From the IMG/VR virus record IMGVR_UViG_3300045988_052707, positions 15,837-79,836 of that record: 64,000 bases of DNA; one strand, given 5' to 3'. Every line of letters starts with the position of its first letter. The first letter of the stretch is position 1. Below are positions 38,696 through 45,848 of this stretch, piece after piece. The DNA is from a virus. Position numbers and translations under genes: made by a program. Below the pieces are notes generated by a model. The model was not told the DNA's origin, did not search any database, and saw only the letters and a list, made by a program, of their open reading frames with translations.

Positions 38696-38767
38696 TGCCC
38701 CATGTTGGACTCGAACCAACGCCATACAAGTTTAGAATTTGCTCTTCTACCACTGAAGTAATGGGGC
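38696..38767 (-). tRNA. suppressor-type tRNA, anticodon CTA (would decode amber UAG)
   Basis: Acceptor GCCCCAT/ATGGGGC, D-arm CTTC-AGTGGTA-GAAG, anticodon arm GCAAA-TTCTAAA-CTTGT (U33, A37; one A-C mismatch at loop-closing pair), T-arm GTTGG-TTCGAGT-CCAAC; 4 nt from the preceding CAT tRNA. Confidence 0.55.
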
Positions 38768-38804: not shown

Positions 38805-39122
38805 CTATTCGATAATTTGATTCCACTGTTCAAGTGTAAGTTCCTTGACTACTATGCCATTTAGTTCAAATGGAGTATATTGGTTTCCATTCTCTTCTAC
38901 AAGGATTAACCATTCGTAGCCACGTTGTTTGCTATGAGTTCTAATAATCTCCTTAATGGTTTCGATGCCAAAAGGAGTTAGAATCTTCTGCCCTTCTCTG
39001 TAAAGATACCTCTTGTTGAGGTCTTTTAAATCCTCTAATGTGGTTAAATGAGGATTAGGGTTCTTAGTGATAACTACATGGTCATCTCCTACACTAACAT
39101 AATAATCTCGTTTGTATATCAT
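38805..39122 (-). CDS. hypothetical protein
   Basis: 105-aa ORF. Confidence 0.45.
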   Translation of the reverse strand: MIYKRDYYVSVGDDHVVITKNPNPHLTTLEDLKDLNKRYLYREGQKILTPFGIETIKEIIRTHSKQRGYEWLILVEENGNQYTPFELNGIVVKELTLEQWNQIIE

Positions 39123-39421
39123 TCTCTTACTAATTTAAGTTTCTTGAACATGCGACCGTCATCTTGTAATGCGATTGCTGTTAATTGATTGCCAAGGTCT
39201 GGTTCATAGAATGAAGAATAGTCCTTATTAACTAAGTCCAGTCTTACTTTCCATTTGTCTAAGTCTGCATATAAGTAGATTAAATAGCTATTATTCCACT
39301 CTTGATTAGGATGTTCTAATAACCACTGTGCTACTGCATGACCTCCTTGTACACAACCATAAACTGCATCAAGCTTCTGGTCTATCAGCACATACAATCT
39401 CTTCATCAGAATATGTATCAA
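39119..39421 (-). CDS. hypothetical protein
   Basis: 100-aa ORF, overlaps neighbours by 4 nt. Confidence 0.45.
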   Translation of the reverse strand: MIHILMKRLYVLIDQKLDAVYGCVQGGHAVAQWLLEHPNQEWNNSYLIYLYADLDKWKVRLDLVNKDYSSFYEPDLGNQLTAIALQDDGRMFKKLKLVRE

Positions 39422-40597: not shown

Positions 40598-40847
40598 GAA
40601 TCACACAATCCATATTAACTGTGAATTGTGAGTGCAAAGGTAATGAATCTTTCCCACATATAAAAGTTAATATGTATTAAATACGATAGAAGTTTGCTCG
40701 ATATTAAACTAAGCTCACATATTCTCTCGAACCGATGAGCTTAGTAGTTATTCAACAATTGCAGATACTTTAACTCGTAATAATGACTATGAGTCGAGAT
40801 AGAAATGACACTGCATATGTTGAAAGAATCATATTAATAAAATGGTG

Positions 40848-40921
40848 TAGAGATAACCAGATTCGAACTGATGTTCTTCTAAAGATTGACTTTAGCTGTT
40901 CTACCACTGAACTATATCTCT
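40848..40921 (-). ncRNA. tRNA-like element with non-canonical anticodon arm (loop GTCAATC; CAA?) about 160 nt downstream of Ro60-like gene; tRNA or Y-RNA-like module
   Basis: Acceptor AGAGATA/TATCTCT, D-arm GTTC-AGTGGTA-GAAC, T-arm ATCAG-TTCGAAT-CTGGT all fine; anticodon region CTAAA-GTCAATC-TTTAG has pyrimidine at position 37 and a type-I scaffold inconsistent with Leu. Confidence 0.4.
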
Positions 40922-41084
40922 ATCCAGTCCCTATGGAATCATCCAATAAATTCCCACCTAGTATCACTAGATATGCACAAAGATTACTATACCAAATATG
41001 CGCTCTTCTCCATGCATAATGAAATCTATCTTCTATCCAATCAGAACATTAATTCAACTATTAAATAAATGGTGCGCGAAATAC

Positions 41085-42779
41085 TTAGGCCTTCACAGGC
41101 TTCTTCTGCACGCTTGCATTCTTCTTGACAACATCCTTCTCTAGAATCATCATATTAAGCAACTCTTGATTCATAGCATGCTTAAAAATGTCTCTGGTGG
41201 TTTTAGGCACCTGGAACCTCTTCTCTCCAGTAATAAATGAGGATGTTGAATTATTAAGTCCATTTACTAAGAAGCAATTTGACACTCCTGGAACCAAAGC
41301 TACATTAGGTCTTCCTTTATATGCTAAAGGAACTCTCCAAATAATAACTTTGAACGCCCTTACAAATTCCTTACTGAAATTTGCTTTAAGCAATCTCTGC
41401 TTAAATTCCACGAATGCTTGGTTGTTCAACTTGGTAAAATATGTATGGTTAGTAATTACCACACAACCTCTAGGGAACTCTCCTTCATCTACACCATAAC
41501 CTTCTTTCATTTTACATAACATTTCTGCTATATTAACAATAGAAGGATTCTGGCATAATGCTTCTTCTTTGTCAGATTTCCATTTCTCAATGACATTCTG
41601 ACCTTTGAACTTACGTAGAACCATGTTATCTTCTAACACGGCATAGGAGTTTTTGAATATTGTAGGAAGTAGTTCAGAGTGATATAAAGCATATGCTTTA
41701 CCCAAACTGTAAGCAGATGTTTCGCTATTCTCTATCTTACCATTAGCAGAATGGCTTATATCTCTTACTACCAACAACGGAGCTACTCTATTGCGTTTAG
41801 CATTATCAACGAATACGTTGAAACTTGCATTAATAGAAGTTTCCATAAATTCTGGAATCTCTTCGGCAATTTTATCCAATCCATATGGTTTGAATAAAGT
41901 ATGTAGAAATCCGCTATTAGAGGGCTTCTTACGGTTCTTTAACCAGTTCTGATACTTCTCTTTAAGACCTTGATGTTTGAGGAATTTAGAGCCTACTAGC
42001 TGTGCCAGCGCCTTTCCAGTAACAGTGTCAAAATCAATTTCCAAGAATTTCTTTTGACTGATTAACTGCTGCCATTGGGCAGCTTTCCCGCTATTCTTCA
42101 TCTTCCTATATTTACGATAGGTTGAATAGTCTCCTTCATCCTTAGGTTTACCATAAAGGCCTTCCGCCAAGAATTTGGCTACTATGTTACGTGCTTTTGC
42201 CTCATCTGTCTTACATGCAACACTGGAACGAACACGAGGAAGATACTTCTTTACTAAATCACATGTCTGACCGTTGGCAAGACCTGCGAATATGACTTTC
42301 TTGAAGAAGTCCCAATCCAATCTGTGCTTAAAGCCATGGAGTTGAACATCTAAAGCCATCATAGTAATGAAATCTTTCCAGCATCCAGCTGCTGCAAAAT
42401 AAGCAATGTTGGCATGGAATGTGGGTTTGTGATAGATTGCCAACCACAACATTCTCATTATACCTTCATTCTTCAAACCTTCTCCTTGCTGTGTATCAAG
42501 TTGTGTAACTCCTTCCGGGGTAGTTATTCTACATTTACGAGTTATCATTCTCGTATATGCAGTAAACTTGGTACATAGTAATGGATTAGCTTTCCATAAA
42601 GGATACATATCTTTAGCCACTTGCACGTAGGTACGTGGCTGAAGACATTTCTTAAGATTAACAAACTGGTCTATGAATAACTGATTATTATCCACAAACT
42701 TGGGTTTATTCTCATCCCGCCTTTGACGTGCGGCATTAGGGTAAGGCCTCCTTGGCCTTTGTGCTCCTTTCATTTCCAT
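41085..42779 (-). CDS. Ro60/TROVE-domain-like RNA-binding protein with C-terminal vWA/MIDAS region (Rsr-like)
   Basis: C-terminal block aligns with Ro60 vWA: LLVVRDISHSANG (DxSxS MIDAS), SYAVLEDNMV ~ SYVVAFSDEMV, GCVVITNHTYF ~ ADVFIVFTDNETF; 564 aa, similar to Ro60/Rsr size. Confidence 0.5.
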   Translation of the reverse strand: MEMKGAQRPRRPYPNAARQRRDENKPKFVDNNQLFIDQFVNLKKCLQPRTYVQVAKDMYPLWKANPLLCTKFTAYTRMITRKCRITTPEGVTQLDTQQGEGLKNEGIMRMLWLAIYHKPTFHANIAYFAAAGCWKDFITMMALDVQLHGFKHRLDWDFFKKVIFAGLANGQTCDLVKKYLPRVRSSVACKTDEAKARNIVAKFLAEGLYGKPKDEGDYSTYRKYRKMKNSGKAAQWQQLISQKKFLEIDFDTVTGKALAQLVGSKFLKHQGLKEKYQNWLKNRKKPSNSGFLHTLFKPYGLDKIAEEIPEFMETSINASFNVFVDNAKRNRVAPLLVVRDISHSANGKIENSETSAYSLGKAYALYHSELLPTIFKNSYAVLEDNMVLRKFKGQNVIEKWKSDKEEALCQNPSIVNIAEMLCKMKEGYGVDEGEFPRGCVVITNHTYFTKLNNQAFVEFKQRLLKANFSKEFVRAFKVIIWRVPLAYKGRPNVALVPGVSNCFLVNGLNNSTSSFITGEKRFQVPKTTRDIFKHAMNQELLNMMILEKDVVKKNASVQKKPVKA

Positions 42780-43160
42780 CTCTTTGTTTAAATTTATTGT
42801 TATGAGAGTCTTTCTTTATTCTAAACAATAAACAAGCGGCATTACGGCAATTGGACATGCGTTAATCCGCTCGCCACTTACAGACCGTAATGCACACTTG
42901 ACCAGGCAGGAAAGAGGTTTGCTTGGTGACCTATCTGCATGCTGATTATATAATGCAGACCGTGTAGATTCTCTCTTACACAATATCTATAGTAGATTTG
43001 CACTACTGTTTTCTGATGCTTAATCAGGCGAACTCTTACTGTTCGAATAGATACAGGTTTCAACTCTTTGATATAGCCTTTTAAGTCATAGACACACTCC
43101 GGAGTATGTCTACTGGTTCTTCAGACCAAGTTTTGCTACCACCATTCGTCAATAGTGGAT

Positions 43161-43856
43161 TTAAGGTATTAGATAGTCCACACGAAGGTCTACCGTCTCT
43201 TCGTTTGCTTCTAACACCACAGTCGTCGAAAGAATGTCAGGATTGTCAGCCGTAGTTATCATACTCACAATATCATGTGGGGATTCCAAGTATAAATAAC
43301 CTCTACCGTCCCAAGCTGGAACATATCCGCCTCGTAGAATGTTTCGAGACGGAATAGACTTATAATAATAGTGTGCTGGCCGGTAGTGAGCGAATGATAC
43401 GTTAATAGCTGATTGGTGTGTGCCTATGGTAAAACCACCCAGGACTGTTGCCAGTCTCATCACCTTACTAACGTATTTTGAATCGCCTACTACATCTAGT
43501 CTTATGTTCAAGCCTGGATAGTAGAATTTAGCAACTCTCCTACTTATATCCTTCAACGTTTGAAGAGATTGAAATTCAGCAACATCAACATAGTCTTTCT
43601 CCGATTCAGAACTACCGAAGATACAATTGATTGGTATTGGCTGATTAGCTTCAATACATTCTTCCAAAATAGTGATTGCTTCGGACGGAATAGCTTCATT
43701 ACCAAGTCTGATTCTCTTAGTCCCATATAAGATATGAGCTATAATCTGACTAAGTGGCAATGATAATTTCTCCTTGGCAAAGTTGCTTTCCAAATCATAT
43801 AGATATTGGCAAATGTGTGCACTGAATGGCGTGTTCCCTTGTACTGTAAACTTCAT
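43161..43856 (-). CDS. hypothetical protein
   Basis: 231-aa ORF. Confidence 0.5.
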   Translation of the reverse strand: MKFTVQGNTPFSAHICQYLYDLESNFAKEKLSLPLSQIIAHILYGTKRIRLGNEAIPSEAITILEECIEANQPIPINCIFGSSESEKDYVDVAEFQSLQTLKDISRRVAKFYYPGLNIRLDVVGDSKYVSKVMRLATVLGGFTIGTHQSAINVSFAHYRPAHYYYKSIPSRNILRGGYVPAWDGRGYLYLESPHDIVSMITTADNPDILSTTVVLEANEETVDLRVDYLIP

Positions 43857-44350
43857 ACTATCTGTTCAACTGTTATTAATTTAGTGATTCTGTAACCTCT
43901 TGATTTCAGGAATTTGATTGCTTCCATTTCAGCTTGTGTAATAGGAATCAGATGTTTGTCTTCTTCCGCTTCTGTAACAGCTTCCATTTCAGCTTGTGGC
44001 TTAGGTTTGGGAGGTGCTACATAAGTGCCAGCTTTAATAGCCATTCTCTTAGCATATGCATCTCTCTGTATCTTAGCCATTTCTTTCCTACTGATAGTTA
44101 TCAATTCAATGACTCTAGTCTTATACAAAGGGCCATGTTCTTTCCACATAAATCCTTTAGTATAGATAGCACCGTCAGGTTCAATCACTCCCTGCTTACG
44201 CAAAACAGCCATGAAGTTCTCTGGCCTTGGGAAGCCATTCTTCTTTAAATCCTTGACTACATCTGTAATCTTAAAAGGCCCAGGATTCATTGCCTTTACC
44301 GTGTTAAAAATCCGAACGATGTCATCGTCGGATATTGACCTCTTTCCCAT
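43853..44350 (-). CDS. hypothetical protein with Pro/Lys-rich linker
   Basis: 165-aa ORF, overlaps downstream gene by 4 nt. Confidence 0.5.
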   Translation of the reverse strand: MGKRSISDDDIVRIFNTVKAMNPGPFKITDVVKDLKKNGFPRPENFMAVLRKQGVIEPDGAIYTKGFMWKEHGPLYKTRVIELITISRKEMAKIQRDAYAKRMAIKAGTYVAPPKPKPQAEMEAVTEAEEDKHLIPITQAEMEAIKFLKSRGYRITKLITVEQIV

Positions 44351-44650: not shown

Positions 44651-44694
44651 CCTTCATTTTAGTAATTCCAATTAAGCGTTAATAATAGTGGACC

Positions 44695-44725
44695 ATCGCG
44701 GACTCGAACCGCGGTCTTCACAACT
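44695..44725 (-). other. tRNA 3'-fragment (perfect T-arm CGCGG-TTCGAGT-CCGCG + acceptor 3' strand ATGGTCC-A) without detectable 5' half
   Basis: No complementary GGACCAT or D-arm within 400 nt upstream; lies at the 3' end of a ~900-nt ORF-poor, hairpin-rich region. Confidence 0.35.
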
Positions 44726-45334
44726 CTAAATAACAAGATTACGTGTGTCTCTATTTTATTACATCAGCTGTTGAGTTCAGCATGTAGATAGTTTTACTAA
44801 GAAGCTGAGTGTTAATTCACCAATTACGTCTCCTCGTAAGGCTACGACTTAGTTGTTCACAAACTACCAAACTGGGCTTGACCGAACGGTCGCTCCACCA
44901 CTCCATTTACGTTGGAGAACGTCTATTTGTAACCCATAGCTAGGTAGTGGAGATTTCAGCTTACTAACTCTTAGAGTGTTCTGTTAATGACGTTTGTCAA
45001 TCCTCTTCTGTTTCTAGGTCTCTCCAATTAACCCGACTTAATCAATATAAATACTGATAAGCCAGCAGCTTAGGCTGCCATTCTTACTTCAGTGTTTCCA
45101 CTTAAAATTGTGCATCATTATTAAAGAGTTGGTGCCAACTCTACACGTCTTGCTACCCAGTCATCATGAATCAATTCCATGTATGGCCCATAAATGGCAT
45201 GATTATACTCTCATGCCAGGAGTCATTATGAATTTTAAAAATTTAGGGAGCACAAAATCACCAGTATCCTCCTGTGCCACATTGAGTGGCGTACCCATTG
45301 AGGACTTAGTAACTTATGAGCTATTTTGTTCCAT

Positions 45335-45755: not shown

Positions 45756-45836
45756 CTTTAAAATGATTGGGAGAGGATGGGAGATTCGAACTCCCACTAC
45801 TAGTTGTAACTAGCCTTCTACCATTAAACTAATCCT
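45756..45836 (-). tRNA. tRNA with encoded CCA; anticodon ambiguous (6-nt loop TTACAA between palindromic CTAG stems: TAC/Val or ACA)
   Basis: Acceptor AGAGGAT/ATCCTCT + discriminator C + CCA, T-arm GGGAG-TTCGAAT-CTCCC; Val is the only amino acid otherwise missing from the array. Confidence 0.45.
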
Positions 45837-45848
45837 CTCTTGGCATTA

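Follow-up and report, generated by a model that had tools for sequence, protein, structure and literature searches.

A divergent Ro60-like gene with a predicted hammerhead ribozyme in its leader, within the tRNA/tmRNA island of a human-gut phage

Proteins of the Ro60/Rsr type (PDB 1yvp, 2nvo and 9nf8) have helical repeats and, after them, a vWA domain that bears the MIDAS motif DxSxS. Phages can encode such proteins close to Y-like RNAs, as described for the Thermus phage phiLo, in which phiRo60 occurs with Yrl1 and Yrl2 (PMC12135203), and for mycobacteriophages (PMC4201824). Both phiRo60 and gp220 of phage Bxz1 (AY129337) are bona fide TROVE members. Type I hammerhead ribozymes combine a CUGANGA...GAAA...UH core with three helices in type I order; hammerheads also flank phage genes, and about 40% of them have stem I/II pseudoknots (Perreault et al., 2011, PMC3088659). 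Among the RAGATH motifs, 33 are given as uncharacterised (PMC11061315), and our literature search returned no paper naming RAGATH-34 (RF03103), which is absent from the 224-motif paper. Here, we compare with these systems a phage locus that we consider likely to combine a divergent Ro60-type protein, a hammerhead leader and a diverged tRNA-like element (element X) in a tRNA/tmRNA island.

The window (the whole stretch of 64,000 nt that was analysed) has 30 co-directional tRNA genes identified by ARAGORN, and the locus is a gene cassette within the tRNA/tmRNA island of a ~175-190 kb human-gut phage. The Ro-like gene, the RNA elements and the upstream ORF described here all lie on the minus strand. 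The Ro-like gene (41085-42779, encoding 564 aa) is placed between the phage tmRNA (44686-45189, identified with Rfam) and the main tRNA array, and element X (40848-40921) is found among the tRNA genes. Upstream is an ORF of 231 aa without a family match (43161-43856), whose stop codon abuts the predicted ribozyme and which is kept only in the clade with a Ro-like protein at least 43% identical to that of the window. Among the 33 related loci scanned (to ~34% identity), 27 have the Ro-like gene amid co-directional tRNA/tmRNA genes. Distant homologues are flanked by ordinary tRNA-Thr (e.g., Thr-UGU), Leu, Ile or Met genes, and six distant loci have no tRNA near the gene. The other neighbouring ORFs gave no informative family except a weak “hydrolase” PHROG for 39119-39421, and none is conserved beside the Ro-like gene in distant phages. 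No RtcB or Archease was found among the ORFs scanned. A scan for sigma-70 promoters and terminators gave background levels. A TATAAATA-like stretch in the 44% clade was considered as a T4-type late promoter and rejected, as the invariant nucleotides lie outside it and it is absent from the window clade.

The Ro-like ORF is conserved, with 601 homologues at E ≤ 1e-3, and its family comprises 2859 clusters at 50% identity. The ORF matched PHROG 850 (E 3.5e-11, residues 95-517), which Bxz1 gp220, annotated as Ro-like, matches at E 2.8e-140. The protein has an alpha-helical N-domain (residues ~31-329) followed by a vWA domain (~335-540), the same order as in Ro60/Rsr, and these proteins were its best structural matches. 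In a Foldseek search with the AF2 model (pLDDT 79, pTM 0.51), human Ro60 was the sole match at E ≤ 1e-3 (prob 0.99 over 554 columns); its TM of 0.27 and the pTM of the model are too low to establish a closed helical ring. When the family alignment was compared with a TROVE/Ro60 alignment using hhalign, the match (93.5%, E 2.4e-7) comprised 336 collinear columns and placed window residues 146-518 on Ro60 131-540, so that it extends past the vWA domain to cover about half of the helical domain. This significance was reached only after the alignments were widened on both sides, as a comparison of the narrow alignment (A1) with the Bxz1 sequence alone gave a weak match (19%, 37 columns). The window protein is ~10-12% identical to Ro60/Rsr and lies below Pfam TROVE detection. 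Neither TROVE (PF05731) nor vWA_Ro60 (PF25045) matched it at E ≤ 1 in the Pfam search, whereas Bxz1 gp220, the positive control, carries both. The Ro60/TROVE-like assignment made in the sequence-only reading thus holds as remote homology, seen with PHROG 850, Foldseek and hhalign, but not as a Pfam TROVE match. That reading had also recognised vWA/MIDAS blocks in the ORF, correctly: its DISHS block is the MIDAS DxSxS (D340, S342 and S344, invariant in 59/59 diverse homologues) and the other blocks that it quoted belong to the vWA core. One of these, VVITNHTYF, is the beta-4 strand that normally bears the MIDAS Asp. This Asp (57/59 in the family) is, however, replaced by N444 and the MIDAS Thr (55/59) by P412 in the window protein and in those closely related to it, so the MIDAS of the window clade is partly degenerate relative to Ro60/Rsr.

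Full-length homologues with 43-45% identity (E 1e-130 to 1e-160) carry both DUF2828 (PF11443) and DUF7788 (PF25043), and the window protein can therefore be placed in this family by transitive homology. The window clade itself is too diverged to pass either threshold: the window protein scored 14.9 bits against the DUF2828 cut-off of 29 and had no DUF7788 match in the Pfam search. The DUF2828 papers that we found were irrelevant, and the family is without a described function. A nucleotide search of GenBank phages with 40700-43900 and an NCBIfam search returned nothing, an exact-sequence look-up of the protein found no record, and neither the protein nor its profile retrieved anything but noise from PDB sequences. 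The single tblastn match was a hypothetical protein of Leptolyngbya phage Lbo-JY46. Taken as a whole, the comparisons support a remote and very divergent Ro60 homologue, with a TROVE-like helical domain followed by vWA/MIDAS. By homology, the protein may bind RNA. Judging from its genomic context, its clients would most likely be the phage's own tRNAs, its tmRNA or damaged RNAs.

The 380-nt leader between the upstream ORF and the Ro-like gene (42780-43160) is structured, as had been noticed from the sequence alone (MFE z-score -3.29; 0/200 shuffles fold as well). It is 76% identical to the leaders of loci with proteins 63-68% identical, which is above the expectation for a spacer. The perfect 9-bp inverted repeat claimed for it (GCATTACGG/CCGTAATGC) exists at 42893-42885 and 42847-42839, although the coordinates originally assigned (42829-42888) were off by 5-10 nt from the actual 42839-42893. 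The stem is kept in related loci, through wobble changes in L016 and through several changes on both strands in L017. The 5' part of the leader (43050-43158) matches RAGATH-34 end to end. The match covers model positions 1-107 of 107 and scores 113.7 bits, well over the gathering score (60.7).

Based on the RAGATH-34 match, RNAalifold and covariation, we predict a complete hammerhead ribozyme of type I topology at 42922-43158, about two thirds of which corresponds to the RAGATH-34 match. From 5' to 3', such a ribozyme would consist of the first strand of stem I, CUGANGA, a variable insertion, stem II, GAAA, stem III, the U-H cut site and the second strand of stem I, with the loop of stem II forming a pseudoknot with the 5' flank and with an insert of 70-185 nt in stem III. 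In the window, the element opens with the RAGATH-34 P1 hairpin (43139-43158), which begins 2 nt past the stop codon of the upstream ORF, and with the pseudoknot strand UAGC (43135-43138), which pairs with GCUA (43074-43077) in the stem II loop. The 5' strand of stem I, CUUGGU (43125-43130), leads into core nucleotides C3-A9, CUGAAGA (43118-43124), of which N7 is variable. An insertion of ACCAG and the P4 hairpin (43089-43117; 0-79 nt in other variants) separates A9 from G10.1. Stem II and its loop (43062-43087) follow, with the invariant helix GACUU (43083-43087)/GAGUU (43062-43066), and then G12, A13 and A14 (43061-43059) and the 5' strand of stem III, ACCU (43058-43055). The stem III insert (42934-43054) bears the conserved hairpins P5 (43013-43027), P6 (42991-43007), P7 (42962-42981) and P8 (42935-42958), and the P7 loop, GAGAAUC, is the counterpart of the (U)GAGAAAAUC loop kept in all variants. 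The 3' strand of stem III, (U)AGGU, and C17 (42928) occupy 42928-42933. The predicted cut lies between C42928 and A42927, and the 3' strand of stem I, ACCAAG (42922-42927), would form the 5'-OH end of the Ro-like mRNA after processing. The Rfam model of RAGATH-34 ends at the 5' strand of stem III, places the core CUGAUGA in a hairpin loop and shows the pseudoknot as a helix of the junction; we read its “P2” as the stem I/stem II tertiary pseudoknot.

Several lines of evidence bear on this prediction. RNAalifold paired the 6 nt before CUGAUGA with a strand ~200-250 nt downstream, and the same long-range helix is present in the single-sequence MFE fold. The hammerhead fit emerged only after this distal 3' strand was found; no fit was obtained from local sequence only, with stem II right after A9 or with a GAAAC upstream. 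A scripted search for the stem III complement, U-H and the stem I complement scored at least 10/11 in 12 of 15 helix variants; the rate was 5.2% among 3000 shuffles and 6.7% among mismatched locus pairs. When positions 16.1 and 17 were left free, at least 9/10 stem pairs were obtained for 14 of 20 variants versus 15.8% of shuffles, and this unconstrained search returned U, the partner of A15.1, at position 16.1 in 14/14 cases and C (10), A (2) or U (2), never G, at position 17. Changes on both sides were detected at 6/6 pairs of stem I and 3/5 pairs of stem III, and 95% of the cells in these stems are paired, a share that drops to 24-46% once the partner strand is shifted by 1-3 columns. These pair counts are inflated because the 3' strands in the alignment (alignment A9) were picked by pairing score, and the argument for a ribozyme is carried by the shuffle, cross-locus and unconstrained controls. 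The covariation of stems I and III spans 20 helix variants, including those of environmental phages without the Ro-like gene. The pseudoknot covaries as well (UAGC/GCUA, GCGC/GCGU, ACACG/CGUGU, ACUGG/CCAGU, CCUCG/CGAGG and AGUGG/CCACU). Across the 20 variants, CUGANGA and GAAA are invariant save for N7 (U in 17, A in two and G in one), with an A13G change in variant L032. Stem II is without covariation support because GACUU/RAGUU never varies. The GACUU/AGGUC pairing of the MFE fold was rejected, as the partner varies while GACUU stays constant.

The element shares with type I hammerheads the core, the order of the three helices, the pseudoknot between the stem II loop and the stem I flank, and the intergenic phage position (PMC3088659). 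In contrast to those ribozymes, its stem II opens with a G·U pair (G10.1·U11.1), its stem III insert has 70-185 nt with a conserved GAGAAAAUC-loop hairpin, and between A9 and G10.1 it has either a U or a hairpin insertion that reaches 79 nt. Rfam hammerhead models did not match 42922-43158 even at E ≤ 10, as is expected from the A9 and stem III insertions, which exceed what these models allow, and the hammerhead assignment is therefore that of the present analysis. As far as we know, the additions documented between A9 and G10.1 are limited to single nucleotides. Discontinuous hammerheads of the mammalian Clec2 3' UTR also have distant substrate and enzyme strands and a large intervening sequence, but their insert is in stem I and they occur in a eukaryotic mRNA, whereas the insert described here is in stem III and bears conserved hairpins. 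Peripheral nucleotides (UGACUUAAA, AUAAAUAAAAG and the GAGAAAAUC loop) are conserved well past the needs of a plain hammerhead, which hints at an additional function. Architecture and covariation show that the leader comprises a predicted hammerhead of type I topology, and we infer that it would cleave itself. RAGATH-34, catalogued before only as an orphan motif, looks like the 5' two thirds of this putative ribozyme.

Element X starts 163 nt past the stop codon of the Ro-like gene, in agreement with the tRNA-like element with an odd anticodon arm that had been placed ~160 nt downstream. ARAGORN called it as tRNA-Leu(CAA) of 75 nt, and it scored 52.5 bits with the Rfam tRNA model (threshold 29), with a cloverleaf that has conserved D- and T-loop elements; it has U33, G18G19, the T-loop UUCGAAU and discriminator A73. 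However, its anticodon arm is non-canonical. Two nucleotides, one more than usual, separate the D and anticodon stems, and the anticodon loop G-U-CAA-U-C has U at position 37 and a possible G32-C38 pair. The element is class I in shape, without the long variable arm of bacterial tRNA-Leu, whereas the tRNA-Leu(UAA) and tRNA-Leu(UAG) of the array both have the normal class II shape. Strain L001, 99% identical, has an unchanged copy of element X, but its orthologue in L016 has a 6-nt loop and that in L017, uncalled by ARAGORN, has an AAU loop; unlike element X, the neighbouring tRNA-Tyr and tRNA-Gly keep their anticodons in both loci. Its closest paralogue (69% identity), a second tRNA-like element at 45768-45838 detected by ARAGORN and Rfam, has an encoded CCA and a 4-6-nt “anticodon” loop that differs even between 99%-identical strains.

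The sequence-only reading took element X for the tRNA-mimicking module of a Y RNA that works with the Ro-like protein, possibly, as we would add, together with the paralogue at 45768-45838. This version of a phage Rsr/Ro60 and Y RNA pair seems improbable to us. In its favour, the protein is homologous to Ro60, phiLo and mycobacteriophages encode Ro60 proteins close to Y-like RNAs, and both elements have tRNA-like bodies with non-decoding and fast-changing anticodon loops, so that something other than decoding maintains them. However, no Y_RNA or YrlA model of Rfam matched anywhere in 40600-43300, which includes element X and the leader, even at E ≤ 10. Element X has an ordinary 7-bp acceptor stem with free ends and non-complementary flanks, and neither a Ro-binding stem nor the 5'/3' terminal stem or bulged helix of Y RNA architecture extends from it. 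It is one gene of a 30-tRNA array, and the distant homologues of the protein adjoin ordinary tRNA genes or none. An assignment of RAGATH-34 as the Y-RNA analogue was rejected because its core precedes unrelated ORFs and the gene occurs without the RNA; in comparison with the phage Ro60 systems, the upstream RNA is a predicted hammerhead and not a stem-bulge-stem Y-like RNA with a CGAA motif. Element X could still be a functional, if odd, tRNA. That it supports host decoding, as do the other genes of the array, and serves as a tRNA-Leu(CAA) for UUG is somewhat easier to accept, though still unlikely. The ARAGORN call, the Rfam score, the conserved tRNA nucleotides and the unchanged sequence in L001 all agree with it, but the class I shape, the extra nucleotide, U37 and the possible G32-C38 pair do not, nor does the loss of the anticodon in the orthologues beside tRNAs that retain theirs, and the array already holds two normal class II tRNA-Leu genes. 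More probably, element X is a diverged member of the array that would have kept the acceptor, D and T arms and lost a conserved, decoding-competent anticodon loop. It most likely survives as a processing signal for RNase P and RNase Z that defines a 3' end, a role that the ordinary tRNAs flanking the same gene may take over in more distant phages.

For the leader, the alternative is that it is structured but not catalytic, and serves as a cis-regulatory 5' UTR or riboswitch or as a stand-alone sRNA scaffold bound by the Ro-like protein; the hammerhead-like core would then have arisen by chance or be a dead relic. In Rfam, RAGATH-34 is classed as an sRNA whose function is unknown, and RAGATH-18 proved to be a protein-bound scaffold (PMC11061315). 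The peripheral loops are strongly conserved, a local hairpin of the window clade (UUGGU/ACCAG) can sequester the first strand of stem I and the core in an alternative fold, and the full RNA above the Rfam gathering score was found only upstream of the Ro-like gene. We nevertheless regard this alternative as very unlikely, as the core, U16.1, the non-G at position 17 and stems I and III are kept or covary across lineages without shared neighbour genes, and the local hairpin is missing from L025, L029 and all minimal variants. Moreover, the same core precedes unrelated small ORFs where the Ro-like gene is absent, and the RNA was absent beside the gene in 26/26 distant loci searched. The cut site of the environmental variants is ~20-30 nt ahead of the next ORF, and a scan of genome contigs detected the RNA in one 2-kb MAG contig only. 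The protein might likewise be a generic vWA/MIDAS protein, such as a chaperone cofactor or an adhesion or assembly factor, that resembles Ro60 in its vWA fold only and has no role with RNA. We give this explanation little credence.

Under the preferred combination of a Ro60-type protein, a hammerhead leader and a diverged tRNA-like element, cleavage at C42928|A42927 would free the Ro-like mRNA from the tmRNA/ORF transcript that precedes it. The released mRNA would have a 5'-OH and a structured 5' UTR of 148 nt, with a hairpin (ACCAAGC/GCCUGGU, 42927-42901, loop AAACCUCUUUCCU) at its start. The inverted repeat is downstream of the predicted cleavage site, and its 9-bp stem would lie in the rest of this 5' UTR (42780-42921). 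The other product, the upstream RNA, would have the folded ribozyme at its end and terminate in a 2',3'-cyclic phosphate. A more far-reaching scheme, which at present we hold to be a long shot, is that the Ro-like protein and the non-decoding tRNA-like RNAs (40848-40921 and 45768-45838) form a phage ribonucleoprotein of the Ro-Y type that guards or repairs the phage tRNA pool against host anticodon nucleases, with the hammerhead coupled to that role and not a mere processing site. The structured 5' cleavage product might join such a particle, and the 2',3'-cyclic phosphate and 5'-OH ends of a hammerhead would be exactly those handled by RNA-repair systems.

If the prediction is true, the orphan Rfam family RAGATH-34 would gain a function, and hammerheads would gain a new architectural class, with a helix inserted after A9 within the core strand, a large stem III insert that has a universally conserved hairpin, and a pseudoknot between the 5' flank and loop II. 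Current hammerhead models overlook architecture of this type, and other “orphan” motifs may be pieces of split ribozymes. The uncharacterised DUF2828/DUF7788 family, with its 2859 clusters, would be placed beside Ro60, and the Ro-like gene found in the tRNA/tmRNA islands of gut phages acquires a concrete, testable and RNA-centred hypothesis. The arrangement suggests that a ribozyme at one flank and a tRNA or tRNA-like element at the opposite flank may release mRNAs embedded in phage tRNA arrays.

The window comes from a large phage genome and carries 30 tRNA genes at 11.8-45.8 kb, all but one on the minus strand (ARAGORN), and a tmRNA at 44686-45189 (minus strand; 66.6 bits, Rfam) for which ARAGORN made no tmRNA call in the window. 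The locus of the Ro-like gene (41085-42779, minus strand) sits between this tmRNA and the main part of the tRNA array, and all relevant features are on the minus strand. Relatives of the region were found on IMG/VR and human gut metagenome contigs of about 175-190 kb, and a nucleotide search with the locus region revealed no GenBank phage with shared DNA. A protein-seeded scan recovered 80 viral loci with 33-99% identity to the Ro-like protein. Co-directional tRNA or tmRNA genes occur within 4 kb of the Ro-like gene in 27 of the 33 loci scanned; in distant phages, an ordinary tRNA-Thr(UGU) is often directly 3′ of the gene and a tRNA-Leu, Ile or Met is 5′. tmRNAs, some of them permuted, recur beside the gene in the related loci L016, L025, L028, L038, L047, L050, L052, L062, L078 and L080. 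Beyond the clade with Ro-like proteins at least 43% identical, none of the window's neighbouring ORFs accompanies the gene, and searches of Pfam, PHROGs and NCBIfam found no informative family for them.

The sequence-only reading had described the product of this gene, a 564-aa ORF that the ORF call confirms, as Ro60/TROVE-vWA-like. The only Pfam match is sub-threshold (DUF2828, E 0.012), PHROGs returned phrog_850 "RNA-binding protein" (E 3.5e-11, residues 95-517), and PDB sequence searches gave no match. A large protein database contains 601 homologues, of which those 43-45% identical bear DUF2828 (PF11443) and DUF7788 (PF25043), and a profile search of 1.84 billion representatives with the protein family yielded 2859 clusters. 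In the AlphaFold2 model (pLDDT 79, pTM 0.51), a helical domain at the N-terminus precedes an alpha/beta domain; the model's sole Foldseek match at E≤1e-3 was human Ro60 (554 columns aligned, TM 0.27). The annotated Ro-like gp220 of mycobacteriophage Bxz1 matches Pfam TROVE and vWA_Ro60, as well as phrog_850 (E 2.8e-140). Homology was tested with hhalign on two alignments, one of 26 TROVE/Ro60 sequences (gp220 homologues) and one of 59 members of the window family. The two aligned over 336 collinear columns (93.5% probability, E 2.4e-7), pairing residues 146-518 with Ro60 131-540, so the match takes in half of the helical domain plus the vWA domain. These profile comparisons identify the protein as a remote homologue of Ro60 that belongs to the DUF2828/DUF7788 family; the proposed kinship with Ro60 thus stands, without membership of Pfam TROVE.

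The DxSxS motif of the MIDAS (D340, S342 and S344) is invariant in all 59 family sequences. Of the 59, 55 also keep the MIDAS Thr and 57 the MIDAS Asp, whereas the window protein has P412 and N444 at these positions; the window clade may therefore have lost or changed metal binding. Across this clade (at least 63% identity), Thr is changed to Pro and Asp to Asn or Gly, and DxSxS is retained.

Upstream of the gene, the claimed leader of about 380 nt (42780-43160, minus strand) is a real gap, bounded at its upstream end by the stop codon of ORF 43161-43856. Rfam identified the RNA motif RAGATH-34 (RF03103) at 43050-43158 (minus strand), starting 2 nt past this stop codon and scoring 113.7 bits, where the gathering cut-off is 60.7. 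We built our own covariance model of the element from five copies and ran it on related loci. The element was found on the strand of the Ro-like gene, a few hundred nt upstream, in 28 of the 32 loci searched that had upstream sequence and a protein at least 41% identical; none of 26 more distant loci had a convincing match to this model. The 270 nt from RAGATH-34 to the start codon are also strongly conserved, with covarying hairpins. In 13 full leaders, RNAalifold predicted a long-range helix between the six bases before an invariant CUGAUGA and a strand 200-250 nt downstream. This helix shows compensatory changes and is also present in the single-sequence MFE fold. Several variants lack the local hairpin shown around CUGAUGA in the Rfam structure; in the window clade, this hairpin may represent an alternative fold.

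Our best explanation of the leader is an ornate type I hammerhead ribozyme, with predicted catalysis, that had not been recognised before; RAGATH-34 would be a fragment of it. In the proposed fold (all positions on the minus strand), stem I would be formed by CUUGGU (43130-43125) and ACCAAG (42927-42922). Its first strand is followed by core C3-A9 (CUGAAGA, 43124-43118), an insertion consisting of ACCAG and hairpin P4 (43117-43089), stem II (GACUU, 43087-43083, with GAGUU, 43066-43062) and G12, A13 and A14 (GAA, 43061-43059). Stem III would pair ACCU (43058-43055) with AGGU (42932-42929) around an insert of about 120 nt (43054-42934), leaving C17 at 42928. The Rfam junction helix "P2", UAGC (43138-43135) with GCUA (43077-43074), would then be a pseudoknot that ties the stem II loop to the sequence flanking stem I on its 5′ side. 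Such a tertiary brace between stems I and II has been described in about 40% of natural hammerheads (PMC3088659). Rfam hammerhead models did not match the leader, even at E≤10.

With the conserved 3′ module as the search pattern, 70 viral stretches were identified, about a dozen of which are environmental contigs with the same core and different helices. These environmental variants have no Ro-like gene in the locus and score under the Rfam gathering threshold for RAGATH-34. Across variants, stem II is invariant, with G.U as its first pair; A9 and G10.1 are separated by U or by an insertion of 0-79 nt, and the stem III insert is 70-185 nt long. A hairpin with a (U)GAGAAAAUC loop stands at the end of this insert in every variant. 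After it, the environmental variants have a UUAAAA joiner and then the 3′ strand of stem III; the window clade has an additional hairpin, P8, in place of the joiner. The (U)GAGAAAAUC-loop hairpin lies at 42962-42981 (minus strand) in the window and has equivalents in L028, L062, L081, L105, L111, L120, L139 and L144. Its conservation exceeds the known needs of hammerhead catalysis.

We searched the 400 nt downstream of GAAAC by script for the complement of stem III strand a, then U-H, then the complement of stem I strand a. At least 10 of 11 was reached in 12 of 15 distinct helix combinations, compared with 5.2% of shuffled sequences (n = 3000) and 6.7% of mismatched locus pairs (n = 164). When positions 16.1 and 17 were unconstrained and metagenome matches were added (from a set of at least 70), at least 9 of 10 stem pairs were found in 14 of 20 combinations versus 15.8% of shuffles. 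Position 16.1 was U in 14/14, and position 17 was C (10), A (2) or U (2), never G. Stem I variants include CUUGGU/ACCAAG, GAUGGU/ACCAU, ACUGAC/GUCAGU, AACAAU/AUUGUU, AAACCU/AGGUUU, ACUAUC/GGUAGU and AAUACU/AGUAUU, and those of stem III ACCU/AGGU, ACAU/AUGU, ACAGU/ACUGU and ACUC/GAGU. In an alignment of the excised segments, 6/6 stem I pairs and 3/5 stem III pairs changed on both sides, and 95% of cells were paired versus 24-46% with the partner slid 1-3 columns; the 3′ segments of this alignment were selected by pairing score, so the shuffle, mismatched-locus and unconstrained controls are the real test. The core varies only at N7, save for A13G in one variant. This variant, at about 3587-3800 of L032, has GUUGGAAC in place of GUUGAAAC and is predicted to be inactive.

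Downstream of the gene, the sequence-only reading had noted a tRNA-like element (40848-40921, minus strand) and linked it to the tRNA-mimicking module of Y RNAs. A Y RNA is not supported here: at E≤10 over 40600-43300, which includes the suggested regions around 40700-41100 and 42780-43160, Rfam returned RAGATH-34, tRNA and noise only, with no Y_RNA or YrlA, and the acceptor stem of the element (7 bp, discriminator A) has free ends and non-pairing flanks. Bacterial Y RNAs require a terminal Ro-binding stem (PMC4201824; PMC12135203). The tRNA-like element itself does exist: according to ARAGORN it is a tRNA-Leu(CAA) at 40847-40921, Rfam scores it as tRNA with 52.5 bits at 40848-40921, and its acceptor, D and T arms are retained. 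These features would suit a working, if odd, tRNA-Leu, which we consider unlikely. The element has no class II variable arm and, as the earlier reading noticed, its anticodon arm is non-canonical, with two bases between the D and anticodon stems and the loop G-U-CAA-U-C (U37). The anticodon is not kept in orthologues (a 6-nt loop in L016; an AAU loop and no ARAGORN call in L017), and the closest paralogue in the window, 45768-45838 (minus strand), is likewise aberrant; we therefore regard the element as a non-decoding or decaying tRNA gene. The paralogue has good acceptor, D and T arms, an encoded CCA and an "anticodon" hairpin with a loop of 4-6 nt (CUAGU-UACA-ACUAG). Its loop evolves unusually fast, as the sequence is not the same in the window, in L016 and in L001, a strain with 99% identity. 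The tRNA-Tyr and tRNA-Gly adjoining the downstream element are conserved. Most plausibly, this downstream element is retained as an RNase P/RNase Z processing signal.

The slot before tRNA-Tyr and tRNA-Gly is occupied in the clade with 44% protein identity by tRNA-like RNAs of 92-95 nt (L025 7051-7144; L028 6945-7036; L038 7045-7137; L047 6889-6983). Their anticodon loop has 4-5 nt, and their long variable arm is capped by UUCUAGG, an invariant 7-nt loop that resembles the anticodon loop of a CUA (amber) tRNA placed in the wrong arm. A possible promoter or processing element is an 87-nt block immediately upstream of tRNA-Tyr (40600-40686, minus strand). It includes an 8-bp hairpin (CACAAUUC/GGAUUGUG) and has nearly 100% identity in L016 and L017, far above the conservation of the genes around it.

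Elsewhere in the array, a tRNA with anticodon CUA at 38695-38767 (minus strand; ARAGORN "Pyl", Rfam tRNA 62.7 bits) recurs as the same suppressor-type tRNA in L001, L016, L017, L050, L067 and L071, suggesting that phages of this group recode TAG. The 100-aa ORF 39119-39421 (minus strand) matches phrog_3668 "hydrolase" (E 6.6e-7). Its motif GCVQGGHAVAQ resembles peptidyl-tRNA hydrolase 2, which would make it a further translation-related gene in the tRNA island. ARAGORN also called overlapping tRNAs on opposite strands, Arg-UCG (30819-30895, plus) and Ser-GCU (30834-30922, minus), the former probably an artefact of the antisense tRNA-Ser. Near tRNA arrays of related loci we detected an abiF RNA motif (50.1 bits) and permuted tmRNAs (L052 2066-2103; L050 9152-9472; L131 4360-4584).

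Cleavage between 42928 and 42927 would release the Ro-like mRNA with a 5′-OH and a 148-nt UTR, in which stem I strand b could refold into a hairpin (42927-42901, loop AAACCUCUUUCCU) that covaries in L016 and L017. The 9-bp inverted repeat noted earlier exists, at 42893-42885/42847-42839, 5-10 nt from where it had been placed; it falls within this UTR and is also maintained in L016 and L017. As of 2024, RAGATH motifs other than the three established ribozymes still had no assigned function (PMC11061315), and our literature search found no paper naming RAGATH-34. The assignment of RAGATH-34 as a hammerhead fragment thus appears to be new within the literature searched. Hammerheads next to prophage genes are already known (PMC3088659). 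In the environmental variants the predicted cut site is 20-30 nt ahead of the next ORF, which fits a general role of the ribozyme in trimming phage mRNAs.
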